Position numbers and translations under genes: made by a program | The notes under the pieces: model-generated | What the model was told of the DNA's origin: nothing | The model's database searches: none | The model's input: the letters and a program-made list of their open reading frames with translations, nothing else | Part shown: positions 1 through 25,175 of the stretch, one piece after another | How the letters are laid out: every line of letters starts with the position of its first letter | Numbering within the stretch: position 1 is the stretch's first letter | Assembly (NCBI GenBank): GCA_041649675.1 | Contig: JBAZMQ010000006.1 | Location: forward strand, 7,003 to 71,002 | DNA length: 64,000 bases | From: Patescibacteria group bacterium | GTDB taxonomy: Bacteria; Patescibacteriota; Patescibacteriia; Buchananbacterales; UBA6539 | Reading direction: 5' to 3'

Positions 1-86
1 AAAAATGAAAAAAATAAAGAAGGCGCACTGACCGATTTCTTCAATCGGAATCCAAAAATTGATTTTGCCAATCTCTAATCAATATT

Positions 87-689
87 ATGCATCACCAAAG
101 ACGATTTTTTTGTCGCTTTAGAAAAACCAAACCACTGTTTAACAAACAGCTTAAAGTCTTGCTGGTTACAAACTCAATGATTTTAGTGGCCATTGCTATG
201 CTGGGTCCAATTTATGCTCTCTTTGTCGGCAAAATCGGCGGCGACTTACTAGATGCGAGTTTAACCAGCGCCATGCTGGCGTTTGCTGCCGGCGTAACTT
301 CTTTGGCCACCGGGGTATTTTCGGACAAAGTTAAAGAAAATGAATTAATCGTTGTGGCTGGTTATATTATCGTTGGTATCGGATTTTTGCTTTACACTAT
401 TTGCGATTCAATTTGGTTTTTATTATTAATCCAAGTTATCATCGGTTTAGGTGAAGCCATTTATAATCCGGCTTTTGATGCGGTTTATTCAAAACATTGC
501 ACTGACGACCACGTTGGCAAACAATGGGGAGCTTGGGAATCAATTAATTCATTTTCTATTGCCGGCGGAGCGGTAATCGGCGGTTTAATTGCTACCTCCT
601 TAGGCTTTAATGCTTTATTTATCACTATGGCTTTGCTCTGTTTTTCCAGTGCCATTTATATCTATCAACTGCCCAGAAAACTACTCTAG
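87..689 (+). CDS. hypothetical polytopic membrane protein (MFS-like half-transporter?)
   Basis: 200-aa ORF with about 6 hydrophobic segments. An in-frame TGA at 60-62 precludes an upstream extension. Confidence 0.5.
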   Translation: MHHQRRFFCRFRKTKPLFNKQLKVLLVTNSMILVAIAMLGPIYALFVGKIGGDLLDASLTSAMLAFAAGVTSLATGVFSDKVKENELIVVAGYIIVGIGFLLYTICDSIWFLLLIQVIIGLGEAIYNPAFDAVYSKHCTDDHVGKQWGAWESINSFSIAGGAVIGGLIATSLGFNALFITMALLCFSSAIYIYQLPRKLL

Positions 690-690
690 T

Positions 691-719
691 TTGACAAAAG
701 AATTTTGATCTGCTAAATT
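691..719 (+). promoter_or_regulatory. candidate sigma70-type promoter TTGACA-17-TAAATT driving the T-box leader
   Basis: TTGACA at 691-696, a 17-nt spacer, TAAATT at 714-719. Confidence 0.4.
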
Positions 720-744
720 AGAATATATTCATTAACAACTACAA

Positions 745-1003
745 AACCTAGGAAGCGTGTCTCCGGCTTTACGTCGGAGGTTGGGCACGCTGAGGTGATT
801 GCTGCGCTAGTGGCAATCCGGGCCAGCCTGCCGTAATCACAGGCCACAGTGTGTTGGTCTTTTGACATAAAGCACTGAAAGTGAGCAGTTAACTGTTAAA
901 GAGTTAATTGTTAATCCAGGGTGGTACCGCGGAAAGTCCAAGACCTTTCGTCCCTTAATCTCGGTTTTTTATCGAGGCTAAGAGATGAGAGGTTTTTTTG
1001 TTT
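745..1003 (+). promoter_or_regulatory. T-box riboswitch leader (probably tRNA-Trp responsive) with terminator
   Basis: Canonical T-box sequence AATCCAGGGTGGTACCGCGG at 913-932. The first ~40 nt form a GC-rich stem (GCGTG/CACGC plus CTCCG/CGGAG). Downstream hairpins are followed by U-tracts at 968-977 and 993-1003. The downstream genes are trpB2 and trpS. Confidence 0.8.
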
Positions 1004-1052
1004 GCCCAATGATGAAATTTAAACGTTCTTTAAGCTAGAAGGAGAGGGCTTT

Positions 1053-1397
1053 ATGCCAAAAACAATAATCGCCGTGGTTGAAAAGATACCTTTAGCGGCT
1101 GCTAGCCAACGTTGGCGCGCCGAACTCAAAGGTAACAGTGAAATTAGTGTCTGCAAAGCTACTTGGCAGCAGGCCGCTGAGGCTTTAAGACAAATGCTTG
1201 AAGCGGAAGAATGCCAGGTTACAACCAAGACTTATGAAGTTGAACACCGCCTTTTTTACCCAGACACTGAACTCATCAGCTACCGAGACGGGAAACGAGC
1301 TTGTGGCGATCCCTTAATGACTTATCTGCGCAATAGTCATATTGAGAGTTGCCGTAAGTGCCAACAACGCCTGGCCGAGTTATCCATCAACCCTTAA
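1053..1397 (+). CDS. hypothetical protein (114 aa, C-terminal CxxC)
   Basis: Strong RBS AGGAGAG lies 7 nt upstream of the ATG. No recognisable family. First ORF after the T-box. Confidence 0.55.
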   Translation: MPKTIIAVVEKIPLAAASQRWRAELKGNSEISVCKATWQQAAEALRQMLEAEECQVTTKTYEVEHRLFYPDTELISYRDGKRACGDPLMTYLRNSHIESCRKCQQRLAELSINP

Positions 1398-1404
1398 ACA
1401 CATT

Positions 1405-1451
1405 GCTGTCAGAGGAAAAAATCAGCTTTCCTCTGACAGCCAACTTTTTCC
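1405..1451 (+). terminator. hairpin GCTGTCAGAGGA-N12-TCCTCTGACAGC followed by a weak T tract
   Basis: Perfect 12-bp inverted repeat at 1405-1416 and 1429-1440, then CAACTTTTTCC. Confidence 0.45.
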
Positions 1452-1584
1452 AACTAAATCAAATTAATATACCAAATTTTAAACCAAGACTATGGCAAAA
1501 AAATATTTATTTAAAAATCGGGCCCAAGAGTTCTGGCCTCCCAGCACCTAGAGCCTAAAACCTAACTTACTAACAACTAACCTT

Positions 1585-2880
<1,296 letters not shown>

Positions 2881-2890
2881 AAAATCAGTA

Positions 2891-2926
2891 ATTTGCAGGC
2901 GCGAAAGCACCCTCGCGCCTGCAAAT
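2891..2926 (+). other. 13-bp perfect stem hairpin between trpB2 and trpS (no T tract)
   Basis: TTTGCAGGCGCGA-N8-TCGCGCCTGCAAA. Confidence 0.4.
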
Positions 2927-3065
2927 AGGGGTTTGGCCCGTTAATTAGTGAAAACATTAATTTAAAATTATCCTTGTTGATTACCAATGGTTCTAAAAAA
3001 TGACTAGCTGTAAATTATTAAGCGATGGGGTTTACATCATCACTCACAAGTATTAAAATAAGTAT

Positions 3066-4037
3066 ATGTCTAAAGAAATAATTTTGTCGGGCATTAGACC
3101 GACAGGAAAATTGCATATTGGAAACTATTTAGGTTCCCTGGCCAACTTCGTGGAATTGCAAAATCAATACGAAGGCTATTTTTTTATTGCTGATTTACAT
3201 TCCCTAAATGAGCCGTTTGATCCCAAAACCAAATACCAACAAATAATTAATTTGGCCAAAGATTATATTGCCGCCGGTCTTGATCCAAAAAAATGTACGA
3301 TTTTTGTTCAATCTCACATTCCCCAACATGCCGAATTAGCAATAATTTTAGCCAACACCATCCCGGTTTCTTTCTTGTACCGAATGACTCAATTTAAAGA
3401 AAAATCAAATGACCGAGCCAAGGAAAATGTTAATGCCGGTTTATTATATTACCCAGTTTTAATGGCCGCCGACATTTTAGCTTATAAATCAACGATTGTA
3501 CCAGTTGGTCTAGATCAAACGCAACACGTTGAATTAGCCAGAGATGCTGCCGGATTTTTCAATAATAAATTTGGCAAGATTTTTCCCGAACCTAAACCGC
3601 TTTATACCAAGATTCCAAAAGTCATGAGCTTATTAGCACCAGACAAAAAAATGTCCAAAAGTTTGGGCGATAGTCATTGCATTTATATTGATGATGAGCC
3701 CGAAATAATTAAACAAAAATTAGCCAAAGCGGTAACGGATACTGGCGATGGTAAAAGTTTGGGTGCTAAAAATCTTTTAGACTTGGTAAAAATATTTTCC
3801 GATCAAAAAGTTTATTCCAAGCTAGCCGAGGACAGCAAAAATGGCAGTTTAAAATACTCAGAACTCAAACAACAACTAGCTGCTGATATTGCAAATTATT
3901 TTTCCGACTTTAGAAAAAAGAAAAAACAAATCACTGATGAGCAGATAGAAAAAATTCTGACTGGCGGAAACAAAAAGGCCCAAGCCATAGCCCAAAAAAC
4001 TCTGGACGAGGTCAGAAAAAAGATTGGAATTCGATGA
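3066..4037 (+). CDS. trpS: tryptophanyl-tRNA synthetase
   Basis: HIGN (HIGH-class) motif near the N-terminus. KMSKS present. The size and overall pattern fit TrpRS. Confidence 0.9.
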   Translation: MSKEIILSGIRPTGKLHIGNYLGSLANFVELQNQYEGYFFIADLHSLNEPFDPKTKYQQIINLAKDYIAAGLDPKKCTIFVQSHIPQHAELAIILANTIPVSFLYRMTQFKEKSNDRAKENVNAGLLYYPVLMAADILAYKSTIVPVGLDQTQHVELARDAAGFFNNKFGKIFPEPKPLYTKIPKVMSLLAPDKKMSKSLGDSHCIYIDDEPEIIKQKLAKAVTDTGDGKSLGAKNLLDLVKIFSDQKVYSKLAEDSKNGSLKYSELKQQLAADIANYFSDFRKKKKQITDEQIEKILTGGNKKAQAIAQKTLDEVRKKIGIR

Positions 4038-4594
4038 CCACTTTAATAATTGTTTTGTACTCTTTATTAATTATAGTCGCTACCTTTTCTTTACTGCTTT
4101 CACTGCTAATTGGTACTTCCGCTATTGCTGTGTTCATTGTTAAAGTCCCATTTGTTCCTACACCGCAAAAAAATGTAAAAATAGTAATTGATCAATTAGA
4201 TTTAAAACCGGGCCAAATTTTTTATGACTTAGGTTGTGGGGATGCCCGTTTTTTGATTGAAGCGGCTAAGCGCGGGGCGATGGCAACCGGTTTTGAAATC
4301 GCGCCTTGGGCGATTTGGCGGGCAAAACTAAATATCTTTTTTCAAAAAAGCCAAGCTAAAGTTTTATATAAAAATTTTTATAATGTTAATCTAACCGATG
4401 CTGATGCAGTATTTTGCTTTTTAATTGACGTGGTGATGCCAAAAGTTGAAAAGAAATTGCAACAAGAGCTAAAACCAGGAGCGCTAATTGCCTGCTATGG
4501 ATTCAAACTACCAAACTGGCCCCCGGAAAAAATAGTTGATCTTAAACCCTTTGATAAAAGAGCAAGTAAAATATATATTTATAAAAAACATTAA
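4034..4594 (+). CDS. class I SAM-dependent methyltransferase with N-terminal TM helix
   Basis: DLGCGDARF motif I. Overlaps the trpS stop by 4 nt (ATGA). Confidence 0.6.
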   Translation: MTTLIIVLYSLLIIVATFSLLLSLLIGTSAIAVFIVKVPFVPTPQKNVKIVIDQLDLKPGQIFYDLGCGDARFLIEAAKRGAMATGFEIAPWAIWRAKLNIFFQKSQAKVLYKNFYNVNLTDADAVFCFLIDVVMPKVEKKLQQELKPGALIACYGFKLPNWPPEKIVDLKPFDKRASKIYIYKKH

Positions 4595-4610
4595 TAAAAA
4601 ATAAATTTCT

Positions 4611-5858
4611 ATGACTGATCCGTTCAAAAATGCCATGCTGCAGCTAAACAAAGCGGCAAAAATCATGGGGTTAAAAAAAGATTTTCTTAAAAGCCTTTCC
4701 CAACCAAAAAGAATTTTAAAAGCTGAAATTCCCATTACTTTGGATAATGGCAAAAAAGTAAAGTTTAAAGCCTTTCGGGTTCAACACAACAATCGGCGCG
4801 GACCTTACAAAGGTGGCATAAGATTTCACCAACAAGTCAGCCTGGAAGAAGTTAAGGCTTTGTCTTTCTGGATGACAATAAAAACCTCGGTAGTAGGAAT
4901 CCCTTTTGGCGGCGGCAAAGGTGGCATAATTGTTGATCCGCACAAACTTAGCAAAACTGAATTAGAGAGACTCTCGCGGGGCTATATTAAAGCATTTTAT
5001 AAATATATTGGCCCGAAAGTTGACGTGCCAGCACCCGATGTCAATACCAATTCCCAAATTATGGATTGGATGACTGATGAATACACTAAACTGACTGGTA
5101 AAAAACAACCAGCGGTTATTACCGGAAAATCAATTGCGGCGGGCGGGTCGTTGGGCCGAAATACGGCCACAGCTGATGGTGGATTCTTTATTTTGATGAA
5201 TTTGGTCAAAAAATTAAAAATGAAACCGAAAAACACTCGGGTAATTATTCAAGGCTTTGGCAACGTCGGCGGCAATATGGCAGACTCGCTTTATCATGCC
5301 GGCTTTAAAATTGTTGGTGTTTCTGATGCCACCACTGCCATTATTGATCCTAAGAACAAAGGTTTTGACTCTCATGTAATTGAAAAAATAAAAGAAAAAC
5401 ATGGCCGAGTTGATATTTGCACTTGTGAAAAAATTTATTGTCAGTGTAAAAATCATAAACATATAATAAAAGAAAAACTCCTTGAATACCCTTGCGACAT
5501 CTTAATTTTGGCGGCTTTAGAAAATCAAATTACCAAAACCAACGTTAAAAAAATTAAAGCTAAAATTATTTTGGAATTAGCCAACGGACCAACCGCACCC
5601 CAAGCTGAACCGGAACTACTCAAAAAAGGAGTCATAATTATTCCTGATGTTTTGGCAAACGCCGGCGGGGTGACTGTCTCTTATTTTGAATGGCTGCAAA
5701 ACATGAAGAATCAAAAATGGAGTCAAAATCAGGTTAAAACCAAACTCAAACCAATTATGATTAAGGCTTTTGAACAAACTCAAAAAAATGCCAAGCGTTA
5801 CAAAACTGATTTGCGCACGGCAGCTTTTATCTCTGCCTTGGAGAGAATAATCAAATAA
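4611..5858 (+). CDS. gdh: Glu/Leu/Phe/Val dehydrogenase family (glutamate dehydrogenase)
   Basis: KGGIRFH plus GGGKGG motifs and a Rossmann GFGNVGG motif. Confidence 0.85.
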   Translation: MTDPFKNAMLQLNKAAKIMGLKKDFLKSLSQPKRILKAEIPITLDNGKKVKFKAFRVQHNNRRGPYKGGIRFHQQVSLEEVKALSFWMTIKTSVVGIPFGGGKGGIIVDPHKLSKTELERLSRGYIKAFYKYIGPKVDVPAPDVNTNSQIMDWMTDEYTKLTGKKQPAVITGKSIAAGGSLGRNTATADGGFFILMNLVKKLKMKPKNTRVIIQGFGNVGGNMADSLYHAGFKIVGVSDATTAIIDPKNKGFDSHVIEKIKEKHGRVDICTCEKIYCQCKNHKHIIKEKLLEYPCDILILAALENQITKTNVKKIKAKIILELANGPTAPQAEPELLKKGVIIIPDVLANAGGVTVSYFEWLQNMKNQKWSQNQVKTKLKPIMIKAFEQTQKNAKRYKTDLRTAAFISALERIIK

Positions 5859-5961
5859 GTTAAAGCTAAACAAAAACTGGTCGCCTGGGGTAACCGGTTT
5901 TTGTTATAAAAAAAGAGAGCTAGCAGCACAGAACTACTAGCTCTAAAACAACAAGGATCAA

Positions 5962-7458
5962 TCAGCGACCAACGCCGCCTTCGCAATTTCCTACATCGTA
6001 CAACTGATTCAAGATGTAGGCGGGCAAGCCATCTTCGTAAATGGCGATATTCCCAGTCAGCGCGGGCCCTAACTCGGCCTCGTCAACCGGGTAGCCATTG
6101 AAAGGAAAAACAAACGGCACTGGCACACTGGCTGGTTGGCCGTCTGTAATCTCAATCAGATAGCCCAGAAACCGCGCTTGGTCTCGGCCAAGGTCATCCT
6201 GGAACAGGTCGGCTTCAACGCTGGTAGCCAGCGGGGCTTCCAGCTTGGGATAAAGCTGAGGCGAAATTGGGCAGTTCAACCCGGTCTCGTCAGCCATATC
6301 ATATAAACCGCGGACTCTCACCCACAAGTTACTGTGAGCGACCACATCGAACCCGGGAAAGTCAATCACAAGAATTCCCGTCACTGGATCGGGTACCGGA
6401 TTAGTAAGAGAGATACCGGGAAACTCCGGAATTTCTCCCTCACCCTCACTGGCTGGATTGACTTGTACTGTCGCGAAAATCGTATTGTTAATCTCATCGA
6501 TTTCCGCTAATTCATCGGCTGCATCAACCTTCTGAAGCAGCTGTTTTACACCAGCCGAAGTGAAATGACCAGTTGATATTATACTGAATGTCCCGCCCGG
6601 AGGCAACGGCATATCGTGATCAATGCCAGGCAGTCCGTCAAAGACAAAGTCCTCAAAGTTCCGATAGCCACTACACAGCCCAATGCACGAGGTCAGCGGC
6701 TGTGAACCATAATAATGACCCCAAGCCGTAATCGTGACTTCCGCACCAACTGTTAATGGGGTGGCAAAAGTAAACTCGTCTAAGACAAGATCAGACCAGG
6801 CTTCTTGGCCGTCCAATCTAATCATTAAGGCTCGCAGACTGCCACCGGTTGTGAGTAACCAGGTGTCCCAGTTTGAGGAACGCCGGAATGCATTCGCGTA
6901 AGGTGTAAAGGGATTCCAATCCTCCCCAACGTAGAACGTCCCACCGGCTGCAAAAGGATTCCACTGAATCCCGGCAAAGACTTCTGTCTCATTGAGGGTG
7001 ATCCCGACTGGAACATTGAAAAAATTGTCCGCCGGCGAAGATAAATCCTTCACATCCGTTAACAGAGCCGGGATGGAAGCTAATAATACTCCAGGAGCAT
7101 TATCTTCCACGCTATAGAACACTATGTTGCAACTTAAGTCCGGATTTGGACTTTCTGGGACGTTACGCCCCATGGCGACACACAGGCTGTTGACTTGGTA
7201 TGGTACTGGCAAGGTAAAACGCTGAACGAATTCCGCGCTAGTTACTTCAGGGTTTGGCCCGTAACCGATACCACCGTCAATGCTGCCATCGTCCAGGGTG
7301 ATAGCATCGGTACACGTATTCCACTCACCCGTATCCTGATTGAATACGTTTTGGACGAAGTTCGTGTATGAGAACGCGGCGTACCGGAATCTTTCGTTGA
7401 ATGTGTTTGTGTCAAAGGTTTTGCCTTCTTGCAACACATACAACGTATCTACAAACAC
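5962..7458 (-). CDS. GC-rich protein without its own signal peptide; probable frameshifted continuation of 7449..8921
   Basis: Starts with GTG, overlapping the last 10 nt of the upstream ORF in a different frame. Same high-GC composition. No RBS is apparent. Confidence 0.5.
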   Translation of the reverse strand: MFVDTLYVLQEGKTFDTNTFNERFRYAAFSYTNFVQNVFNQDTGEWNTCTDAITLDDGSIDGGIGYGPNPEVTSAEFVQRFTLPVPYQVNSLCVAMGRNVPESPNPDLSCNIVFYSVEDNAPGVLLASIPALLTDVKDLSSPADNFFNVPVGITLNETEVFAGIQWNPFAAGGTFYVGEDWNPFTPYANAFRRSSNWDTWLLTTGGSLRALMIRLDGQEAWSDLVLDEFTFATPLTVGAEVTITAWGHYYGSQPLTSCIGLCSGYRNFEDFVFDGLPGIDHDMPLPPGGTFSIISTGHFTSAGVKQLLQKVDAADELAEIDEINNTIFATVQVNPASEGEGEIPEFPGISLTNPVPDPVTGILVIDFPGFDVVAHSNLWVRVRGLYDMADETGLNCPISPQLYPKLEAPLATSVEADLFQDDLGRDQARFLGYLIEITDGQPASVPVPFVFPFNGYPVDEAELGPALTGNIAIYEDGLPAYILNQLYDVGNCEGGVGR

Positions 7459-8921
7459 CGTTGCTTCGCCGGCGGTTGGGTAGACATCAGGCCTTGAATC
7501 ATCAAAGCCTTCACGAGGTGGTTAGTCAGAGTTGCGATAAACCGCGCCCGGGCATACCGCGAACCAACGTTAGCTGTAATAAAGATTCGCGGTTCAGTAG
7601 AATCCAGTTTGCACAAGAAGTTGTGGTCACCGGCTACTGATCGTAGGGTTAAAAGCGGATCGGTGGTAGAAAATCCATACCACACCATCATGCCGTCGTC
7701 ACTTAGCTGGACCTCGTCGGGAACAAAAATCCCGGCAAAGTTTTGGCCGCCAAGATGTGTGACCCGAACGCCATTACTGGCGTAATAAACGGGATTTTCC
7801 GGAGCAATAATGGTAAAGCCAGCCGCACCCGGCCAAGAATCACCAGGCGGGGCATAACGCCAACTGTACTCGCCAACAGACGTTAACATATAATCAAGGG
7901 TGTAGTCACCACCCGAGAATACGTCCGGGACCAACATTGCCACCATAAAGGTGTCCAAGTTACTGAGATGGATACTAAGTGGATTGAATGGTGAACTCCA
8001 GACAAAAGAGCTTTCATAGTCATCATACTGGGATTCAATCTCCAACCCTTTCCAAGTATCAAATTGCCAGCCAACTTGAGGAAAGCTTTGAATAGTGACA
8101 TCAGTCCCAACTTCAAATTTCATTCCATTGTTTGGCAATGAGTCAACGGCGGCGGGAGATAAAGAAAAGCCACCTTGACCCAAAGGAAATGATTTGACCC
8201 AGAGGTCAACGAGCTCTCCTTCGCCTTCTCCTTCTCCTTCGACACTTCCTTCACCTTCGGGTCGGCCTTCTCCTTCGGAAGGTATGCCAAAGACAGCATA
8301 GATCAACAAGTCACGAGTGACTGTTAGTGTCACTGTTGACTCGGCGCAGGTGTCACCTGAGTCGTGATCAGAATAATACAAAAAATTATCCCGACACGTT
8401 ACTACTGACAAGGTGACTTGGCTGCCAGCCGGATAGGTCGCCTGATTTGGCTCAATACTGACTTGACAGTCAGCTCCTTCCGGTATGAGCTGGACTTCCA
8501 CAAAGAAGCCCAACTCGCCTTCAGTGCCACCAAGACAAAAGCCATCTTCCGTGCCAGCTTCTGGACAAGCGTGATATACGCCAGCGTTGAATAACTGAAT
8601 CAGGCGCAGCAGCTCGGATAAGCTTATTTGCCAGTCCTGCGGCGCATAGTCACTGCTATGGGGTACGCAGTCCTGCGGCAAAGGACTTAATCCGGGAGCA
8701 AAGCCATCTTCCGTGCCGGCTTGGCAATGCAAACCATCCGAGTTAAAAAACTGGATAACGCGCAGTAATTCATTCAGACTGATGGCGCCGTTGCCATCCA
8801 AATCGGCGGAATAAACCGCCTCGGCTTGGTTACAGACAATGATCCCGACAAACACAATTAATGCCAGGATAAAGTTTTGGTTCGGCTTTAGGTTTTTCAA
8901 CGTCAATCTCCTTTTCTTCAA
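7449..8921 (-). CDS. GC-rich secreted protein with signal peptide, two dockerin-like Ca-binding repeats and an acidic EGEG repeat (N-terminal part of a split gene?)
   Basis: Signal peptide MKKRRLTLKNLKPNQNFILALIVFVGII. The repeats DLDGNGAISLNELLRVIQFFN and DWQISLSELLRLIQLFN, each followed by a CxAGTEDGF segment. EGEGRPEGEGSVEGEGEGEGE tract. GC content is clearly above the neighbouring DNA. Confidence 0.6.
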   Translation of the reverse strand: MKKRRLTLKNLKPNQNFILALIVFVGIIVCNQAEAVYSADLDGNGAISLNELLRVIQFFNSDGLHCQAGTEDGFAPGLSPLPQDCVPHSSDYAPQDWQISLSELLRLIQLFNAGVYHACPEAGTEDGFCLGGTEGELGFFVEVQLIPEGADCQVSIEPNQATYPAGSQVTLSVVTCRDNFLYYSDHDSGDTCAESTVTLTVTRDLLIYAVFGIPSEGEGRPEGEGSVEGEGEGEGELVDLWVKSFPLGQGGFSLSPAAVDSLPNNGMKFEVGTDVTIQSFPQVGWQFDTWKGLEIESQYDDYESSFVWSSPFNPLSIHLSNLDTFMVAMLVPDVFSGGDYTLDYMLTSVGEYSWRYAPPGDSWPGAAGFTIIAPENPVYYASNGVRVTHLGGQNFAGIFVPDEVQLSDDGMMVWYGFSTTDPLLTLRSVAGDHNFLCKLDSTEPRIFITANVGSRYARARFIATLTNHLVKALMIQGLMSTQPPAKQRCL

Positions 8922-9157
8922 TCTTTTTTTCAGCCATAAACAGCCACAAGCAACCTAGCTTCTAGCCATAATTTCACTATATTTAAACGGATTTTCAAGG
9001 TTCAATCCTAAAAAAATCCGACTTCTATTTTTAGCACTTTTTTTAAATTTTGTCAAGGTTAAAAAATATCCACCCTTAAATTAAAGATGGATATCGCTAT
9101 ATATAAATTTTAACTAAAATAATTACTATAAAATGCCCTAGCCTGCTCTTTTTTAAT

Positions 9158-9496
9158 TTATTCTTCCTCAGGTCTTTTTATCTCATTAACAAGCCGATAT
9201 CTCGCTTCTTTATCAACATATTTTCTGCCCGCCTCTAAATCAGAAGCTAATAATTCTTTTACCTTGTTACGCAAATTCCCAGTATTAGTAACCCACAAAA
9301 TATTCATTTTACCAGTCCTAACTTCATTAATAATTTCAATTAAAGATGAAGCGGAAAATATTTCTCGACTGCCAGCAATGCAATCGCAGGCCGTAATCAT
9401 TTTAAATAAACTTTGCCAGTTAGTAGCCAAATTAAAATCAATAGTTGGCTCTTCACCTTCGGTCGGATTTGGACCAAATTTTTTTTCCGCAACCAT
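9158..9496 (-). CDS. hypothetical protein (112 aa)
   Basis: ORF only. Its start lies 15 nt after the murI stop. Confidence 0.4.
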   Translation of the reverse strand: MVAEKKFGPNPTEGEEPTIDFNLATNWQSLFKMITACDCIAGSREIFSASSLIEIINEVRTGKMNILWVTNTGNLRNKVKELLASDLEAGRKYVDKEARYRLVNEIKRPEEE

Positions 9497-9511
9497 AAAA
9501 ATTGATAATTT

Positions 9512-10318
9512 TTAAATTAATTCTATTTTTTTTAATTCAATTTTTTGACCCAGCCAACGCTCGGCATTATTTGCAAAATTCTGAGTTAAATCAGTTACTA
9601 AAAATTGATGGTCTTTATTTTTTGCCAACTGCTTTTCAATTTCTGGATGACGGGCTAAATAATCTTTTAAACTGCTGGCAACGATAACGGCTGGATCAAA
9701 AACTTTAATATTTTTGCCGGCGGCTTTTTTAAACTGTTTCAGTAGCATTGGATAATGGGTGCAGCCCAAAATTAAAGTATCAATATTTTTGAGCTTTAGC
9801 GGTCGGACATAATAACGAACAATCTTTTGCGTTTCTGGCCGGTTAATAAAACCTTCTTCAACTAACGGCACTAAAAGCGGGCAGGCCTGCTGCAAAACCT
9901 TAACGGCCGGATTTAAAATTTGCAACTCTCTAATATAGGCATTGGAACTGATGGTTGCCTTTGTCCCAACCACACCAATTCTAGCCAAACTGGAAATCTT
10001 GGTTGCTTCTTGAGCTACCGGCCTGATTACGCCCAAAACTCTACCGGCTGGATAATGTTTAGGCAACCACTTTTGCTGAATTTTTCGCAGAGCTTCAGCT
10101 GAAGCGGTATTACAGGCAATAATAATTAACTTGCAACCCTGCTTGAATAAATAATCAACCGCTTGCTCGGTAAATTTATAAATCAGTTCCTGCGAACGAT
10201 TGCCGTAAGGTGCCCGAGCCGTATCACCCAAATACAAAATTTGGTAATTAGGCAACTGCCTCATTACCTCTTTGGTGACGGTTAAACCGCCAAGACCGGA
10301 ATCAAAAATACCAATCAT
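9512..10318 (-). CDS. murI: glutamate racemase
   Basis: N-terminal IGIFDSGLGGLTV and the second cysteine region GCTHYP. Confidence 0.85.
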   Translation of the reverse strand: MIGIFDSGLGGLTVTKEVMRQLPNYQILYLGDTARAPYGNRSQELIYKFTEQAVDYLFKQGCKLIIIACNTASAEALRKIQQKWLPKHYPAGRVLGVIRPVAQEATKISSLARIGVVGTKATISSNAYIRELQILNPAVKVLQQACPLLVPLVEEGFINRPETQKIVRYYVRPLKLKNIDTLILGCTHYPMLLKQFKKAAGKNIKVFDPAVIVASSLKDYLARHPEIEKQLAKNKDHQFLVTDLTQNFANNAERWLGQKIELKKIELI

Positions 10319-10355
10319 AATTCAGTAATTAAAGCTTGAGATTCGGATAAAAACT

Positions 10356-11120
10356 TTACTTTTTACCCCAGCCGTCAAAAGCGCGCAAAACTTCGGTTGG
10401 AATCATAAAGACAACGGTATTTGACTGATCAGAAGATATGTCGTTAATTGACTGCAAAGTCCGCAAGTGTAAAGCACCGGGCACTTTGGAAAGGGTTTCA
10501 GCTGCCTTGCTTAAATTTTCCGAAGCAATAACTTCACCTTCAGAATTAATAATCACCGCTCGCTTTTCTCTTTCAGCCTCAGCCTGCTTGGCAATCGTTC
10601 GCTTCATGCCTTCAGGCAAAGTAATATCTTTTAATTCAACGTCGGAAATTTGAATACCCCAAGATTCAGAAGATTTATCAACAATCTCTTTAATCCGGCC
10701 AGAAATTTTTTCTCGGTTGGCTAATAATTCATCCAAAGTCACTTCACCGCTAGTGTTTCTCATTGTGGTTTGGGCCAGCTGGGAAATAGCCTGGTTGTAA
10801 TTTTCAACCTCCAACTTAGCTTTGGCCGCATCCGCCACCCGGTAATAAATAACGGCATTGATTTTAACCGAGACATTATCGCGAGTAATCGCTTCTTGAT
10901 CCGGCACATCAGCTACCTTAATTCTGATATCAATCTTAAACATCCGCTGAATACTCAATAAACTGAAAATCCAAGTTAGTCCAGGCTGGCGGGTACCGGT
11001 ATATTTGCCTAAAGTTAAAATTACCGCTCTTTCGTTTTGATCAACTACGCGCAAACCAGACAAAACAATGATGATACCAAAAACAATGATGATACCAAAA
11101 ATAGATAATAGTCCTTCCAT
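10356..11120 (-). CDS. SPFH/band-7 (stomatin/prohibitin-like) membrane protein
   Basis: N-terminal TM helix, then an SPFH core (QNERAVILTLGKY...). Confidence 0.8.
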   Translation of the reverse strand: MEGLLSIFGIIIVFGIIIVLSGLRVVDQNERAVILTLGKYTGTRQPGLTWIFSLLSIQRMFKIDIRIKVADVPDQEAITRDNVSVKINAVIYYRVADAAKAKLEVENYNQAISQLAQTTMRNTSGEVTLDELLANREKISGRIKEIVDKSSESWGIQISDVELKDITLPEGMKRTIAKQAEAEREKRAVIINSEGEVIASENLSKAAETLSKVPGALHLRTLQSINDISSDQSNTVVFMIPTEVLRAFDGWGKK

Positions 11121-11156
11121 AGTTTTGATTTTTAAAAATTAATAAAATTATAATAA

Positions 11157-12503
11157 CTATTTAATCTGTTTAACAAAATTAACTAGCTCCTGCAATCTGT
11201 CAGCTGTCATTTGTTCAGATTCAGTCTCAACGGTAATTCTTAAGAGAGGTTCAGTATTAGAAGGCCTAACATTAAACCACCAATTAGGATATTGGACCGT
11301 TAGACCATCAAGCTCGTCTTGATTGCCAGCTTGATATTGTTTCTTTAATTTTTCAATAATACTTTGAATTTTACTTCGGTCTTCCAAAACCAAATTTTCT
11401 TCCGGCGATTTAAAGTATTTGTAAAATGGTTCAATAATTTCTGAAAGTGGCCGGCCGTCTTGAGAGAGTAACTGTAATAAAATTAAAAACGGAATAAAGC
11501 CGGAATCAGAATAAGCATTATCGCGAAAACAATAATGAGCTGAGACTTCTCCACCGACAATACCGTCATTTTGCCGCAAACCAGCTGAAACAAAAACAAA
11601 TCCGACCCTGGTCCGAATCGGCTTGCCGCCCCATTCTTTAATTTTTTCTGGTACAATTTTGGAACAGCTCAAATTATAAGCAATTCCCTTACCAGGTTCC
11701 CGGCGTAAAAATTCTTTGGCCAGTAATAATAAGGTGATATCGGCCCGAATAAATTTTCCGGTCTCATCAATGAAATTTAATCGATCGGTATCCCCGTCAA
11801 AAATTACCCCAAAATCCACTTTCTGTTCAAGCACTGACTTAGTTATTTGCACCTGACTTTCAGGCAAAAGCGGGTTAGACGGATGAGCCGGAAAACTACC
11901 ATCAAGCTCAAAATTCAACGGAATAATTTCAATCGGCAGATATGGTTTTAGTAAAGGAATAATTTTTCCCGCCATGCCATTTCCGGCATCAACTACAACT
12001 TTTAACGGCTTAATTTTTTTAAGATCACAAAAAGAAAGAACATGTTTAATATATTGCGGCAAAATATCAGACTCAATAATCTTGCCTTTAGTTTTGGCCT
12101 TGGCCTTGGGTAAATTCAAAACGTGATCACGCATCTCTTCTCCCCTGACCCATTGCATATCTTTTAAAACCATTTTGAAACCGTTATATTCAGAAGGATT
12201 ATGCGAAGCCGTAATCATAATTCCCGCCTCGTGTTTCAAAATACCAACTGCGTAATAAACAGCATCAACCGGAACTAAACCAATATCTAAGACATCAACT
12301 CCTTGATCAAGAATACCTTCAATTAATTTCTTTTTTATTGCTGGCCCAGAAAGCCTCATGTCGCTACCAATAGTTACTTGGGTAGCTTTAGATCTCAAGG
12401 CAAAAGCTCGGCCAACTTGGTAAGCTGCCTCTTGACTTAACTGATTAGGATAAGTTCCTCGGATATCGTAAGATTTAAAAATTTTTTGGTCAATACTTTT
12501 CAT
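11157..12503 (-). CDS. phosphoglucomutase/phosphomannomutase family (alpha-D-phosphohexomutase)
   Basis: Active-site TASHNPSEYNGFK and Mg-binding FDGDTDR. Confidence 0.8.
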   Translation of the reverse strand: MKSIDQKIFKSYDIRGTYPNQLSQEAAYQVGRAFALRSKATQVTIGSDMRLSGPAIKKKLIEGILDQGVDVLDIGLVPVDAVYYAVGILKHEAGIMITASHNPSEYNGFKMVLKDMQWVRGEEMRDHVLNLPKAKAKTKGKIIESDILPQYIKHVLSFCDLKKIKPLKVVVDAGNGMAGKIIPLLKPYLPIEIIPLNFELDGSFPAHPSNPLLPESQVQITKSVLEQKVDFGVIFDGDTDRLNFIDETGKFIRADITLLLLAKEFLRREPGKGIAYNLSCSKIVPEKIKEWGGKPIRTRVGFVFVSAGLRQNDGIVGGEVSAHYCFRDNAYSDSGFIPFLILLQLLSQDGRPLSEIIEPFYKYFKSPEENLVLEDRSKIQSIIEKLKKQYQAGNQDELDGLTVQYPNWWFNVRPSNTEPLLRITVETESEQMTADRLQELVNFVKQIK

Positions 12504-12526
12504 GTTTTTATCAATTGTTACAAATA

Positions 12527-13693
12527 TTAGCGATAATCACGAATAATATTCTTCTGAGTGGCCAAAAAAGCACCAAACGCCAACCAAACCAAACATAATT
12601 TAATTAACCAACCAAGCAAAGGTAAACTGGTGATAAAAACAAAAACAATAATTCCAAGTACCGTTGGCCACATTAGCGAACCTTTATATTTTTTTTCAGG
12701 GCTCAAACTATTAAGCAAGGCCAAACCGATTACGAAGCCGACAAAGACTTTAGAGACATACAAAACAATAATATAAAATGGAATGATAATCAAAGCCAAA
12801 GGAATACCAATGATTGTGCACATTAACAAAATGGCAACAATCGGAATTGCAATTGAATAAACTGCACCCGTTACCAAAGATGGCCAAGGCTTTTTTACTA
12901 TTTCTTCTCTGACTTCCAATAAAACTTTAGAGAATAAGGATACTACCACCATGCCAATTATTAAAAGGCTGAACAAAGAAATAATTTTCAAAAATAGAAA
13001 AGCGGTACCAAAAGCTTTACTGGCATCCAAACGATCCGGCATAACTGCGGTCTTTCTTGTCGTTTGACCAATGACTTTAGCGCCATCTTTCAAAACCAAC
13101 TGCTGATCATTTGGTGCCTGATAAGATAAGTTACCGCCAATTTTAGCTTGCGAACCTAAAACTAATTGGCCTTGTTTATCCAGCGAAGCATTAACGTCTT
13201 TGCCCACTTCGCTGCTCAAAGAAATTGCGTTAGCAGCGGCCCAAAGTCCGCCGGTAATTGGGCCCTTGATTTCCAAACTACTGGCCGCGGAAAAAACATC
13301 CCAAGCAACTTTGGCATTACTGCCTAAAACAACATTATTACCACCCGCCCAAACATTATGACCAACCTCGCTATCCACTTCAACCGAATTACCAATTACT
13401 CTAACGCTGCCCAAAACCGCTCCCGTAATTTTAATCGTACTGCCAGCAGCAATGACATCACCCGCTACCGGTCCCGAGATGGTAATGCTGTTACCGGCCA
13501 CAATCACGTCACCATGAACTGCTCCTTTAATATCAATGATGTTTCCGGCTTTTATAAAGTTACCTTCAATGATTTGATCGGCGCCAATCTCAACTGTCTG
13601 GTCTTGGACTTCGGCGGCCAAAACTAAAAAGGGCGCCGCTAGTAAAAATAGACAGATTAAAACCAAAAAAATGGGTTTTTTCATAATTTTCAT
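12527..13693 (-). CDS. secreted/membrane-anchored protein with bactofilin-like beta-helix repeats and a C-terminal multi-TM region
   Basis: Signal peptide. Repeated G(D/S)V-x-(A/V)G-x-(S/I) units. Four C-terminal hydrophobic helices. Confidence 0.55.
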   Translation of the reverse strand: MKIMKKPIFLVLICLFLLAAPFLVLAAEVQDQTVEIGADQIIEGNFIKAGNIIDIKGAVHGDVIVAGNSITISGPVAGDVIAAGSTIKITGAVLGSVRVIGNSVEVDSEVGHNVWAGGNNVVLGSNAKVAWDVFSAASSLEIKGPITGGLWAAANAISLSSEVGKDVNASLDKQGQLVLGSQAKIGGNLSYQAPNDQQLVLKDGAKVIGQTTRKTAVMPDRLDASKAFGTAFLFLKIISLFSLLIIGMVVVSLFSKVLLEVREEIVKKPWPSLVTGAVYSIAIPIVAILLMCTIIGIPLALIIIPFYIIVLYVSKVFVGFVIGLALLNSLSPEKKYKGSLMWPTVLGIIVFVFITSLPLLGWLIKLCLVWLAFGAFLATQKNIIRDYR

Positions 13694-13725
13694 AAATAAA
13701 AAATTATTATTAAATCACCAAAATT

Positions 13726-14457
13726 TTAACATTTTTTAGCAATAGTGACAAGATTAGCGGCTTTTAAGTATCTAAACCTCCTGGCCTTTTGGCCGCGCCA
13801 ATAAGCCAAATAATTACTGTCCAGTTTCAATCCCGATTGCTTTACTAGTTTCTTCAATTCACCCAGGGTAAAGGCATGATAATAACGATAGACTTTACCC
13901 TTCATCCAGGGCAAATAGATATCTTTAAAATCCAATTCGCTTTTACCAATAATTTTTAAAAAGGTATAATGAAAGATAAGAGGCAAAAACTTTTTCTGGT
14001 AACGATTCCAGTTAGCCATTACCAAAACTCCGCCCGGTTTTAAAACCCGCTTAATTTCCTGCAGAGCTTGCAAGCGTAATTGCTTACTAGGCAAATGATG
14101 CAAGACGGCGATAAAAAATACCACCTCAAAAGAATTATCAGCGAAAGGTAAATTAAAAACTTCCGCTTTTAAAAATTGTTGACTCTCAATTTTGAAATCA
14201 TTTCGGTTTTGAGCAAAATTAATTTGGTCATCACTATTATCCACGCCGATATAATCAATCTTGACATCTTTAAATAACAAGCGTAACTTACCATTACCGC
14301 AGCCCAAATCCAAAACTTTATCGCCAGATTTGACATATTTTTTTAAATCAGGCAGATTGGGCCAAAGATAGTTTCTGGTCCGATTAAAATCACTGGCGAT
14401 TTCATTATAATTATTTTTCGTCTGGGCCAAAATTTTTTCAACAGTCTGTGGCTTCAT
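13726..14457 (-). CDS. class I SAM-dependent methyltransferase
   Basis: VLDLGCGNGKL motif I. Confidence 0.7.
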   Translation of the reverse strand: MKPQTVEKILAQTKNNYNEIASDFNRTRNYLWPNLPDLKKYVKSGDKVLDLGCGNGKLRLLFKDVKIDYIGVDNSDDQINFAQNRNDFKIESQQFLKAEVFNLPFADNSFEVVFFIAVLHHLPSKQLRLQALQEIKRVLKPGGVLVMANWNRYQKKFLPLIFHYTFLKIIGKSELDFKDIYLPWMKGKVYRYYHAFTLGELKKLVKQSGLKLDSNYLAYWRGQKARRFRYLKAANLVTIAKKC

Positions 14458-14468
14458 AAACTACCCTT

Positions 14469-14578
14469 CTGTCATTCTGAGGGAGTGCCGACATATAGTC
14501 GGCCCGACCGAAGAATCTCATACTATTTTTATAGGGATAAGATTCTTCACCCCGACTAAGTCGGGGTTCAGAATGACA
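14469..14578 (+). repeat. MITE-like structured repeat, copy 1 (TIR TGTCATTCTGAG / CTCAGAATGACA, inner IR CGAAGAATC / GATTCTTC)
   Basis: Nested inverted repeats read directly from the sequence. An ATG of the Elp3 gene lies 12 nt downstream. Confidence 0.8.
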
Positions 14579-14589
14579 ACTGACAAATT

Positions 14590-16182
14590 ATGAATAAAAA
14601 ATTAGTTACAATAACAAAATCTTTAGCCAAAGCCAAGTTTAAATCTCGGCTGGATTTAGTTAAACTGAAAAAAAAATTATCCAACCAGCTAAAAATGAAC
14701 GCCCCGCTTAACTCTGACTTGTTACGAATTTATAAAAATTTATTGGCTAAAAAAATTATTTTACCAAATAAAACCTTAGAACAACTTTTATGCAAACGCG
14801 AAATTCGAACTCTTTCGGGTGTGGCGGTAATTACGGTTTTAACTAAACCCTATCCTTGTCCGGGCCAATGTATTTATTGTCCCAGCGAAAAAGACATGCC
14901 TAAAAGTTATTTAAAAAACGAGCCAGCGGCCGCCCGAGCGTTTGCTACCAAATTTGATCCGTTTGTCCAAACTAAAGTTAGGCTCGACGCTTTAAAAATT
15001 AACGGCCACTCAACCGATAAAATTGAACTGATAGTTTTAGGTGGCAGCTTTAGTGCTTACCCAAAAAATTATCAGGCTTGGTTTATCAAACGCTGCTTTG
15101 AGGCTTTAAACAAAAAACCGGCCAAGAATCTTGCAACTGCCCAAAAGCAAAATGAAACTGCTTTGCATCGCTGCGTTGGTTTAACTTTGGAAACCAGACC
15201 GGACATGATTACGCCTAAAGAAATTGAAAGAATGAGGAATTTGGGCTGTACTCGCGTTGAACTGGGCGTGCAAACAATTTACGACCCTATCTTAAAACTA
15301 AACAAAAGAGGCCAGACTGTCAAACAAACAATTGAGGCAACAAAAATGCTTAAAGCTGCCGGCTTTAAAGTAATGTACCATCTAATGCCTAATTTGCCCG
15401 GCTCAAACTTAAAGTTAGATCTGAAAATGTTTAAAGAAATATTTTCTGGACCAAATTTTCAGCCGGACTTACTAAAAATTTATCCTTGCGTGGTGACAAA
15501 AAATTCAGTTTTATATCACTGGTACCGGCAAAAAAAATTTAAGTCTTATTCAGACAAAGAATTAAAGAATTTATTAATTAAAGTTAAACGATTAATTCCC
15601 CAGTATGTCCGCATCACCCGTTTAATCCGCGATATCCCGGCCGAGAGTATAATTGCTGGCAATAAAATCACAAACTTAAGACAACTAATTGCCCAGGATT
15701 TCAAAGGTTGCAAATGTATCCGATGCCGCGAAGCCGGACATAGCTTAGGAATTAAGAATTATGAAGCAGGAATAAGGAAAAAAAGTTCCTCCATAATTCA
15801 TAATTCCTGCTTCATAATTCAAAAATATAAGGCTAGCGGAGGAACAGAATATTTTCTAAGCTATGACTCAAAGGACAAAAAAATTCTTTATGCTTTTTTG
15901 CGACTAAGAATTAACGGCGATATTAATAATAATTTTATACCCGAACTAAAAGGAGCGGCACTTATTCGCGAACTGCATACTTACGGGCAGATGGCGCAAT
16001 TAGGTCAAATTGGTAAAGTTCAACATCTGGGTTTAGGTAAAATGCTTTTGGCCCAGGCCGAAACCATTGCCAAAAAACAAAAAATAAAAAAAATCGCTGT
16101 AATCTCTGGCATTGGTGTCAGACAATATTATAAAAAATTCGGCTACCATTTAGCCGGTACGTACATGCTAAAAAATTTATAA
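14590..16182 (+). CDS. elp3: Elp3-like radical SAM / GNAT acetyltransferase (tRNA U34 carboxymethyluridine synthase homolog)
   Basis: 530 aa. N-terminal radical-SAM Cys cluster (PCPGQCIYCP). C-terminal GNAT-like region. The overall Elp3 architecture. Confidence 0.75.
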   Translation: MNKKLVTITKSLAKAKFKSRLDLVKLKKKLSNQLKMNAPLNSDLLRIYKNLLAKKIILPNKTLEQLLCKREIRTLSGVAVITVLTKPYPCPGQCIYCPSEKDMPKSYLKNEPAAARAFATKFDPFVQTKVRLDALKINGHSTDKIELIVLGGSFSAYPKNYQAWFIKRCFEALNKKPAKNLATAQKQNETALHRCVGLTLETRPDMITPKEIERMRNLGCTRVELGVQTIYDPILKLNKRGQTVKQTIEATKMLKAAGFKVMYHLMPNLPGSNLKLDLKMFKEIFSGPNFQPDLLKIYPCVVTKNSVLYHWYRQKKFKSYSDKELKNLLIKVKRLIPQYVRITRLIRDIPAESIIAGNKITNLRQLIAQDFKGCKCIRCREAGHSLGIKNYEAGIRKKSSSIIHNSCFIIQKYKASGGTEYFLSYDSKDKKILYAFLRLRINGDINNNFIPELKGAALIRELHTYGQMAQLGQIGKVQHLGLGKMLLAQAETIAKKQKIKKIAVISGIGVRQYYKKFGYHLAGTYMLKNL

Positions 16183-16206
16183 GCTTACTGCAACTTAAAA
16201 AAAGAG

Positions 16207-16236
16207 TGGTCTAATTTTTTGGATTAGACCACGTGA
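16207..16236. terminator. bidirectional hairpin GTGGTCTAAT-TTTTTGG-ATTAGACCAC between convergent genes
   Basis: 10-bp perfect stem with a T-rich loop or flank. Confidence 0.5.
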
Positions 16237-16256
16237 CTAGCAAGGAACTTGAGCCA

Positions 16257-16961
16257 TCAGACTTGCACCGTCGGATGGCTACGGCGCAATTGGACAACTG
16301 TCCCGTCGGATAAAACAACCGGCGTTGGGTTGTGCCACTCTACTCCTTGTTTCTGACAAGGCAAGGTTGGAAAACCGGCTGACTCACTAAAGGCCCTGAG
16401 CGGCTGGGTGATTGCGCCTACAACCGGGCTGCAAGCAACAGCTACACCACCAACAATAACTAATTCGCCGGCGCCAGAACATCCACTTCTGCAGACAGCA
16501 CACGACGGTTCAAAGACTATCTTTGAATCCAGTACTATCGCGTCTAGTACCGGTGCCCGATGAAAGACTTTCACATGACCTTTGACTGAGAGATTAACTC
16601 CCTCTTCACCTGGCTGACACTGCTGACAAGGCAAGCAGCTCAGTTCAACTTCTTCCGGAAACTGGCGATAAGCCAGTATGCTGTAATCAGGCGCCGTCAG
16701 TTGAGCGGCTGGAAAACAGCCAATGCATAATCCTGGCTGGTCGGCTTTGGTAATCGCAATACCCCGACCATGGCAAGCGGTACAACCATTCCAGGGCCAT
16801 TTGGTGTCTTTGCTCCGGTAGGTTTCTAACGGAGCCGCTGCCTGAGGCAAAACGATTTTTGCCCCGCCTGCGGCTGTTTTAACAATCCGATGATTTGTCT
16901 TGTTTGCCATAATCTGATAATCCTCATAGTTTTGGGTTCTGCCTTTATTAACCGGAAACAT
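16257..16961 (-). CDS. GC-rich Cys-rich protein with one CxxCH heme-binding-type motif (c-type cytochrome-like?)
   Basis: CTACH motif plus multiple CxxC pairs. GC content is clearly above the flanks. Confidence 0.45.
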   Translation of the reverse strand: MFPVNKGRTQNYEDYQIMANKTNHRIVKTAAGGAKIVLPQAAAPLETYRSKDTKWPWNGCTACHGRGIAITKADQPGLCIGCFPAAQLTAPDYSILAYRQFPEEVELSCLPCQQCQPGEEGVNLSVKGHVKVFHRAPVLDAIVLDSKIVFEPSCAVCRSGCSGAGELVIVGGVAVACSPVVGAITQPLRAFSESAGFPTLPCQKQGVEWHNPTPVVLSDGTVVQLRRSHPTVQV

Positions 16962-17076
16962 ATTTCCCAGCTAACTCCATAATATACATACAATCTATCC
17001 AATTGTCAATCCCTAAAACAAGAGCTATAATATATATGCCAATAACAAAAATATTATAAATTAATTATATTAAATT

Positions 17077-17231
17077 GTTATTCTGAGGCCGACTACTCTC
17101 ATTGTTAAGTGAGGCCGAAGAATCTCCTTAACTTAGTGGATCCTTTGGCCCCAAACCTAATTAAGCGGCGACCTCAGGATGACCAGAAGGAGATTCTTTA
17201 CTCTCAAGAATAGCTTGGAGCTCAGAATGAC
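17077..17231 (+). repeat. MITE-like structured repeat, copy 2 (composite; roughly the reverse complement of copy 3)
   Basis: GTTATTCTGAGG ... GAGCTCAGAATGAC, with internal CGAAGAATCTCC / GGAGATTCTT and TCATCCTGAGG sub-repeats. An ATG lies 9 nt downstream. Confidence 0.75.
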
Positions 17232-17240
17232 GGAAAAGAT

Positions 17241-17648
17241 ATGACCCAAAACATTAATTTTCATTTTAATAATGTCGTCATCGTCTGCGGCCCAGTGATT
17301 ATTAAAGATAATAAAGTTTTACTAAATAAACACGGCGAAAGTAACTTATGGAAATTTCCCGGCGGCGATATTACCCAAGCCTCTGACGATTTAGAAACTT
17401 GGGCTCAAAAAAAAGTTAAAGAGGAAATGGATTTGGCAGTTGAAATTATTAAGGCACTAAAACCCATGGTAATTTGGAAAAACGATGAAGTAATTTTGCT
17501 GTTTCATTATTTAGCCGAGTTAAAAAGTGAAACCATAAAACCAGCCGCTTATATTCGCGAATACGGCTGGCATGATATTAATAATTTACCGAGTGATTGT
17601 TCGCCAAACATTAAACCAATAATTGAGGAAGTAATCAACAGTAAATAA
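17241..17648 (+). CDS. NUDIX-like hydrolase
   Basis: Nudix-box-like GG-x5-E-x7-K-x-V-x-EE-x2-L segment. Weak. Confidence 0.45.
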   Translation: MTQNINFHFNNVVIVCGPVIIKDNKVLLNKHGESNLWKFPGGDITQASDDLETWAQKKVKEEMDLAVEIIKALKPMVIWKNDEVILLFHYLAELKSETIKPAAYIREYGWHDINNLPSDCSPNIKPIIEEVINSK

Positions 17649-17697
17649 ATTAAGATACAATCAACATAGCACCAGGATAATTATTAAACATAAGATT

Positions 17698-25133: not shown

Positions 25134-25175
25134 GGTTTCTTCTTTTCCTTCCTGTCTGTTGTAACTTGTTGTTTT

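Follow-up and report, generated by a model that had tools for sequence, protein, structure and literature searches.

Dockerin type I domains (Pfam accession PF00404) consist of tandem loop-helix repeats with a calcium-binding-type loop and no entering helix, and they are joined by flexible linkers to the ends of many secreted proteins of one organism. Here we describe a twin-repeat module that shares these features and that is encoded, unlike the bulk of its relatives, at the N-terminal end of a gene in a Patescibacterium. The gene lies on the minus strand of a 64,000-nt stretch of DNA (the window; NCBI GenBank assembly GCA_041649675.1, contig JBAZMQ010000006.1, positions 7,003 to 71,002), where it is annotated as two overlapping open reading frames (ORFs). 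Bacteria of the Candidate Phyla Radiation (CPR, or Patescibacteria) are tiny, of symbiotic type, and thought to live attached to other cells. We consider it probable, at roughly 85%, that the two ORFs represent a single 979-residue gene for a Sec-exported protein of surface or adhesin type, acquired from a Candidatus Hydrogenedentes-type donor and broken by one missing C, not by a programmed frameshift.

One gene and its intact sister allele

We identified two minus-strand ORFs, ORF1 (7449..8921, 490 amino acids, TTG start) and ORF2 (5962..7458, 498 amino acids, GTG start), that overlap by 10 nt in different frames, as an earlier reading made from the letters of the window (the sequence-only reading) had described. 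The NCBI and JGI pipelines each annotated them as two proteins (pairs P0122/P0123 and P0125/P0121, respectively; NCBI fragments MFA5022033.1 and MFA5022032.1). The 90%-identity cluster of P0121 (ORF2) also contains P0124, a single protein of 979 amino acids, encoded on the 48,215-bp ENA contig ERZ27247363:k141_2826939 (L001). The remaining cluster members all come from the 77,508-bp contig of the window itself, on which NCBI and JGI each annotated the gene in two pieces. Across the junction, P0124 reads ...ARFIATLTQPPREGFDDSRPDV....

L001 shares 99.947% identity with positions 1..18900 of the window, with nine substitutions and exactly one indel. The indel is one C, absent from the window (CTGACT[C]AACCACC), in codon 460 (CAA, Gln). 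All nine substitutions fall outside the gene, whose 2.94 kb are thus otherwise identical in the two assemblies. The ORF2 frame is open upstream to position 7521 (PPREGFDD...; PPREGFDDSRPDV...) and resembles real protein there, which places the frame change within 7449-7523 and makes it a change of -1 type, equal to one lost base. On the sequence evidence, the two annotated ORFs are one gene, and joining MFA5022033.1 and MFA5022032.1 is a routine annotation correction. The sequence-only reading had proposed one 'giant' protein of about 985 amino acids and had suggested looking for an intact homolog; P0124 is such a homolog, and the expected size was nearly right, although 979 amino acids make the protein large and not giant. 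With the fused ORFs as query, every match spanned only about 10% of the query, and residues 136-986 of the fused protein returned ORF2 itself (P0121) as the single match.

The N-terminus of ORF1 has a lysine-rich n-region, FILALIVFVGIIV and a cleavage site between AEA and VY. ORF2 starts MFVDTLYVLQEGK and has no hydrophobic stretch, in agreement with the earlier statement that only the first ORF has a signal peptide. The gene likely starts at TTG 8900 and not at TTG 8921, because AAGGAG lies 7 nt upstream of the former and the callers of P0124 (ENA) and P0125 (JGI) start there too. The annotation of two proteins by both pipelines would fit two separate genes, one for a secreted N-terminal protein and one for an independently translated C-terminal protein. 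We regard this as exceedingly improbable. The pipelines differ on the start of ORF2 (GTG 7458 versus ATG 7173), neither start is preceded by a Shine-Dalgarno sequence, ORF2 lacks a signal peptide though its domains are of extracellular type (CARDB-like), and the intact fusion P0124 exists. A consistent occurrence of homologs as gene pairs, in which the second gene has a start and a ribosome-binding site to itself, had been named as the finding that would speak for this arrangement; such homologs were not found.

A programmed -1 ribosomal frameshift, another option of the sequence-only reading, would supply the full-length protein by regulated slippage. The needed change is indeed -1, and the ORFs overlap by as little as 10 nt. 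However, the true junction lies 65 nt upstream of the ORF1 stop and not at the overlap, no X_XXY_YYZ heptamer occurs in the ORF1 frame between 7440 and 7560, and in a near-identical strain this protein is encoded by a single frame (P0124 on L001, the only relative of the gene). The in-frame sister allele and the missing slippery heptamer make slippage very unlikely, and we drop this option.

The break itself is a commonplace frameshift of an accessory gene. It reflects either a mutation that inactivated the gene very recently in some members of the population, or an error in the consensus. Should it be nothing but a consensus or assembly error, the gene would be intact and expressed in the organism. 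Such an error would fit the existence of an otherwise identical intact allele and the fact that the gap is the sole indel in 18.9 kb. It would also fit that a second independent assembly with the deletion was not found: a Logan contig ends short of the site, and a junction DNA pattern admitting either allele had 0 matches in metagenome_contigs (the JGI metagenome collection). On the other side, the missing base (ACT[C]AACC) does not lie in a homopolymer, and a foreign gene that the cell can do without could tolerate a true frameshift. Moreover, the nine substitutions indicate that the window and the ENA assembly represent distinct, very close genotypes, which makes a real polymorphism equally plausible as an assembly error. 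Taking these points together, we lean towards a real variant, hold an error to be possible and anything else to be very unlikely.

Among the nine substitutions, eight are synonymous and lie within 208 bp (window positions 2397..2604) of a gene for a pyridoxal phosphate-dependent enzyme. The remaining one, a Val/Ala change in GDH, is the sole substitution in the other 18.7 kb. The cluster of eight resembles a short tract recombined between strains. Exact look-ups of the window GDH and of P0121 in a contig index gave no match, and the GDH allele of the ENA assembly led back to L001 alone.

From the deleted allele, the ribosome would yield a 460-residue N-terminal fragment with a 23-residue nonsense tail. 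This product would comprise the signal peptide, the module, the InlB-like domains and part of an orphan region, and the C-terminal 519 residues would be left without start signals of their own.

The twin-repeat module and its family

The domain order of the 979-residue protein is signal peptide, twin-repeat module, two InlB-B-like domains with an EGEG linker, orphan region, uncharacterised domain, CARDB-like immunoglobulin (Ig)-type domain and orphan C-terminus (Table 1). Residues about 138-337 score 21.8 bits against Pfam Flg_new_2 (PF18998), for which the cut-off is 23.6. Their HMMER relatives are multi-repeat proteins that match at query positions 14-100 and 106-213, and P0005 carries PF18998. 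HMMER matches to the uncharacterised domain cover query positions 393-577 (residues about 517-701); Pfam has no match for this domain. Residues 530-715 of P0124 align by BLASTP with residues 46-223 of P0011, at the N-terminus of this unnamed module protein (26% identity, E 6e-5). The CARDB-like region is matched at 35-47% identity by P0127, P0128, P0131 and P0139, which carry Pfam CARDB (PF07705). In P0128 and P0139, the above-threshold CARDB match overlaps the stretch aligned to P0124; P0124 itself has no above-threshold Pfam match, including CARDB.

An exhaustive HMMER search with residues 125-979 returned domain-level relatives and no full-length one. No HMMER homolog beyond the protein itself was returned for residues about 338-523, where the frameshift site lies, or for residues about 843-979. 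Sequence inspection revealed no membrane or cell-wall anchor motif, and single-sequence AlphaFold2 on the full 979 amino acids gave a mean predicted local distance difference test (pLDDT) score of 31.

Table 1. Features of the 979-residue gene and its product, in window coordinates.
Feature	Position	Strand	Basis or remark
One gene, 979-residue secreted multidomain protein	5962..8900	-	intact 979-residue ORF P0124; interrupted here by a 1-nt deletion
Stop codon of the gene	5962-5964	-	
Signal peptide, residues 1-27 (MKNLKPNQNFILALIVFVGIIVCNQAEA, followed by VY)	8820..8900	-	by eye: basic n-region, hydrophobic core, AxA
Twin-repeat module, residues 28-124	8529..8819	-	shared with Hydrogenedentes secreted proteins; four conserved Cys
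Two beta domains resembling InlB-B repeats (Flg_new_2-like), residues about 138-337, EGEG linker between	7911..8489	-	
EGEG acidic linker (PSEGEGRPEGEGSVEGEGEGEGE)	8215..8277	-	degenerate 18-nt tandem repeat; Tandem Repeats Finder
Uncharacterised domain, residues about 524-700	6802..7332	-	shared with small secreted proteins and with the N-terminal ends of module proteins from Hydrogenedentes
CARDB-like Ig-type domain, residues about 701-842	6376..6801	-	
C-terminal region, residues about 843-979, past a second short EGEGE linker	5965..6375	-	orphan
Frameshift site	7523..7524	-	one C absent between these bases (window CTGACT-AACCACC; intact CTGACTCAACCACC); base-by-base comparison with L001
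Two allele sequences at the junction, with or without the C	7523/7524		CTGACTCAACC, CTGACTAACC
Out-of-frame ORF1 tail from the deletion (HLVKALMIQGLMSTQPPAKQRCL*)	7449..7520	-	three-frame translation, P0124; the other frame gives true residues 461-484
Shine-Dalgarno AAGGAG	8908..8913	-	7 nt upstream of TTG 8900; read from sequence
Sigma-70-like promoter candidate: TTGACA, 18 nt, AAAAAT	9027..9056	-	AT-rich upstream DNA; consensus scan, 10/12 positions matched, a consensus match only
Intrinsic-terminator-like hairpin (12 pairs), then T-run	5916..5944	-	18 nt past the stop codon; terminator scan and sequence

The two repeats and the EGEG acidic tract that the sequence-only reading had pointed out are both present in ORF1. 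The repeats are two xSLxELLRxIQxFN copies (SELLRxIQFFN), located at residues 36-58 and 95-113; DLDGNG precedes the first copy. The module runs from a first loop (DLDGNGAISLNE) through a helix and hairpin to a second loop (DYAPQDW), again followed by a helix and hairpin. AlphaFold2 with a 44-sequence alignment predicts the same loop, helix and beta-hairpin, twice, at pLDDT 93.5 and a predicted TM (template modelling) score of 0.82. At the DNA level, the halves share a 23-nt repeat of 96% identity (8538-8560 and 8700-8722, 162 nt apart) that encodes (A)GTEDGF. This repeat is a trace of internal duplication or of gene conversion.

The homolog search gave at least 788 matches to the module, of which 120 were listed. 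All 14 named matches among those listed are Candidatus Hydrogenedentes. The window module shares 55-73% identity with the listed matches, 51-74% with the members of alignment A1 and 50-74% overall, and its mean identity to the family (65%, versus 68 ± 6% among members) does not make it an outlier. It carries the family hallmarks – conserved cysteines, of which there are four, two SELLRxIQFFN helices and TEDG[FY] motifs – along with 17 of 17 invariant columns of alignment A1 (by construction). The module profile hidden Markov model (HMM) scores 152.8 bits on the window protein over positions 2-94 of 95.

Module proteins usually consist of a signal peptide, diverse passengers, a long Glu/Gly-rich EGEG linker and the module. 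Passengers include leucine-rich repeats, InlB-B repeats, PASTA, Ig, beta-helix and alpha-2-macroglobulin domains and peptidases. The 121 proteins compared (the 120 listed matches and P0124) contain 128 module copies, 111 of them at the C-terminus, 11 internal and 6 at the N-terminus. Carriers of N-terminal copies are P0020, P0037, P0063, P0075, P0112 and the window protein, and all have the same order of signal peptide, module, EGEG linker and passenger. A C-terminal sorting signal, similar to the C-terminal domain of type IX secretion, was considered for the module and set aside because copies of the module are also found at the N-terminus or inside proteins, in some cases two of them.

Two further observations concern the family. 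Seven members (P0012, P0026, P0029, P0036, P0038, P0039 and P0046) contain a domain, recognised by eye and without a Pfam label, that often occurs twice and precedes the EGEG linker; its pattern is CPxxS[IV]F[SA]QPP...W...YENFSG...PI..V.WWG...F.I.FYxDxxGxPG. The top module matches, P0001 and P0002, come from ERZ25074695 and ERZ24794679 and not from ERZ27247363, and thus give no evidence of co-occurrence with the sister allele.

The module family is undescribed, with no match in Pfam, NCBIfam or PDB. Foldseek returned no significant PDB structure (best E 0.57), and when PDB sequences were searched with the module HMM (hmmsearch), a chance match was all that emerged (GIGANTEA, E 0.72). Loop 1 (residues 33-44 of P0124) fits the textbook EF-hand pattern D-x-[DNS]-x-[DNS]-G-x-[ILV]-x-x-x-E, and loop 2 (DYAPQDWQISLSE, DYxPQDW) does not. 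EF-hand_6 matches 39 of 44 members below threshold, and EF-hand scores reach 19-21 bits against cut-offs of 25-26. Dockerin_1 (PF00404) matches 8 of the 44 members, none significantly (best E 0.0012), and has no match to the window module at E<=1. About 16 of the 50 top-ranked Foldseek matches shown are dockerins, all non-significant. The earlier description of the repeats as dockerin-like or EF-hand-like is supported only in part: all Pfam matches are sub-threshold, and the Foldseek matches to dockerins are not significant.

We infer a role for the module as a Ca-dependent docking unit, because it is linker-joined to hundreds of passengers, works at either end of a protein or internally, and has a dockerin-like loop-helix duplication. 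One JGI protein, P0004 (1349 amino acids), contains a Pfam cohesin domain (PF00963), a dockerin-like GDLNGDG...DGDGGVNSGD sequence recognised by eye, and two module copies. The module thus coexists with a conventional cohesin-dockerin system, which suggests that it belongs to a distinct one.

Host, insertion slot and horizontal origin

The host is, judged by RpoB, a Buchananbacteria-like Patescibacterium. The RpoB encoded in the window has 84-86% identity to proteins of Patescibacteria, several of which bear the name Candidatus Buchananbacteria, and NCBI labels the contig 'Patescibacteria group bacterium'. RpoC, FtsK, a PilB-type ATPase, MurE, IleS and GlyA are also encoded in the window.

The 979-residue gene lies between murI and gdhA. 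In a GlmM-based scan of metagenome_contigs, we identified three related CPR loci: L031 (GlmM 72% identical), L019 and L022. A MurI scan of genome_contigs gave only matches of <=46% identity from other phyla, of no use for synteny. The order radical-SAM, methyltransferase, bactofilin-like, GlmM, SPFH (in L031 only) and MurI is largely kept in the three loci; downstream of MurI follow GDH and a methyltransferase in L031 and L019 and an aminoacyl-tRNA synthetase in L031 and L022. The slots equivalent to window positions 5859..9511 hold one 441-residue gene in L031 (12999-14628; GC 0.54 versus 0.45), three small ORFs in L019 (12149-14230) and two unannotated ORFs of 268 and 351 amino acids in L022 (12783-14948). 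None of the three loci has the 979-residue gene or the 112-residue ORF adjacent to it, and the module HMM finds nothing in them. This differing cargo suggests that the gene occupies a variable slot after murI, between a promoter-like region and a terminator hairpin. The 112-residue ORF (9158..9496, minus strand), directly upstream of the gene, has no family match; its host-like GC (about 0.34) suggests that it was probably not transferred together with the gene.

Several observations support horizontal acquisition, proposed in the sequence-only reading, and point to a Candidatus Hydrogenedentes-type donor. First, GC content is far above background, as had been noted: 0.499 in the gene versus 0.396 in the rest of the window, with GC at third codon positions (GC3) of 0.50-0.52 versus about 0.36 in neighbouring genes. 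As few as 5.6% of segments of this size within the 64 kb are equally GC-rich. Second, the named homologs of the module among the matches listed are exclusively Hydrogenedentes, the window module is no further from the family members than they are from each other, and five of them share its layout. Third, another part of the protein (residues 530-715) matches the Hydrogenedentes-type module protein P0011. Finally, relatives with conserved synteny lack the gene.

The same composition and homologs might indicate mis-assembly or contamination, that is, a GC-rich gene of a Hydrogenedentes genome wrongly joined to a CPR contig. However, the ENA MEGAHIT contig matches both junctions exactly, and the Logan contig SRR8542065_438447 (L040), 100% identical to window positions 13966..8233, matches the upstream one. 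The promoter-like region, Shine-Dalgarno sequence and terminator flank are AT-rich and host-like. Moreover, the GC3 of the gene (0.50) is well below that of the sampled Hydrogenedentes loci (GC 0.55-0.59, GC3 0.64-0.70). A chimeric contig is thus extremely unlikely. The Logan contig ends inside the EGEG-coding tandem repeat, which suggests that short-read assemblies of this family are likely fragmented at the linkers.

We found no convincing direct or inverted repeats of a flanking mobile element around the gene. An AT-rich 20-nt inverted pair, 75% complementary, lies at both insertion boundaries (5897-5916 and 8922-8941) and is probably due to chance. The segment of gene size with the highest GC falls elsewhere, in a second GC-rich block at 24-30 kb. 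This block (24036..29821, minus strand; GC 0.50-0.54, GC3 0.56-0.62 versus a background of 0.40) contains purC, a 240-residue ORF without a family, and purH-like and purB-like genes, all with NCBIfam scores that fall short of the equivalog cut-offs. The block is probably a further horizontally acquired island and would supply the CPR genome with late steps of purine biosynthesis.

Several points weigh against our interpretation of an acquired, recently broken gene for a docking protein. The absence of the C from the assembled sequence fits a consensus error as well as a real mutation, and the non-homopolymer site opposes a typical sequencing error weakly and proves nothing. The GC of the gene lies between those of host and donor, which obliges us to assume partial amelioration or a lower-GC donor. 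The donor itself is deduced from named matches (14 of the 120 listed, of at least 788), and the two regions without homologs imply that the exact donor gene is unsampled. Docking by the module is likewise deduced, and its best PDB match by Foldseek is not significant.

Proposed function and comparison with known systems

We propose that a Buchananbacteria-like cell acquired the gene from a Hydrogenedentes-type donor and that its 979-residue product is a multidomain protein of surface or adhesin type, exported by Sec. In the variable slot, the gene has a promoter-like site and a terminator of its own. The protein would be exported and then cleaved between AEA and VY. Its module may bind Ca2+ through the canonical first loop and mediate docking to a conserved partner, and adhesion or binding would fall to the Ig-like and beta domains further downstream. 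In Hydrogenedentes, hundreds of different passengers would be tethered by this module, joined to it by a flexible acidic linker.

The gene would document the transfer of a surface protein between phyla, here into a Patescibacterium. The module also defines a large family whose behaviour suggests a dockerin-type tether for the Hydrogenedentes secretome. To our knowledge, the hosts of most CPR lineages are unknown, and a host-derived docking module would offer a specific candidate pairing of a Buchananbacteria-like cell with Hydrogenedentes. We found no description in the literature of the module or of an association between Patescibacteria and Hydrogenedentes. That the CPR cell displays or secretes a Hydrogenedentes 'address tag' in order to dock on Hydrogenedentes cells is a speculative and rather unlikely extension. 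If it were true, the gene would be a host-recognition adhesin, Hydrogenedentes would be the host of this CPR lineage, and the frameshifted allele would represent strain-level loss or variation of host attachment.

The interrupted gene resembles frameshifted pseudogenes of acquired genes in its single-base indel, its foreign and probably dispensable nature and its intact sister allele. It differs from them in that the deletion could exist in the consensus alone and not in cells.

In structure comparison, dockerins dominate the non-significant Foldseek matches of the module, with TM scores of up to 0.55 on the target; no sequence or structure match of the module is significant. The module is longer than a dockerin (about 96 versus about 70 residues), each of its repeats is followed by a Cys-containing beta hairpin, with four conserved cysteines in all, and its second loop (DYxPQDW) lacks the canonical ligand pattern. 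With EF-hands (Pfam accessions PF13202, PF13405 and PF00036), the module shares a fitting first loop followed by a helix. It differs in having no entering helix in the AlphaFold2 model, in which residues 1-13 are loop, and in being extracellular and disulfide-bearing.

The closest comparison is with the Hydrogenedentes module family itself (P0007, P0011, P0020, P0037). The window gene differs from this family in its host, a Patescibacterium, in the N-terminal position of its module (versus C-terminal in 111 of 128 copies), in two regions (residues about 338-523 and 843-979) without a counterpart, and in its lower GC3 (0.50 versus 0.64-0.70). It shares with the family the EGEG linkers and types of passenger, including the InlB-B-like domains and the domain found in P0011.

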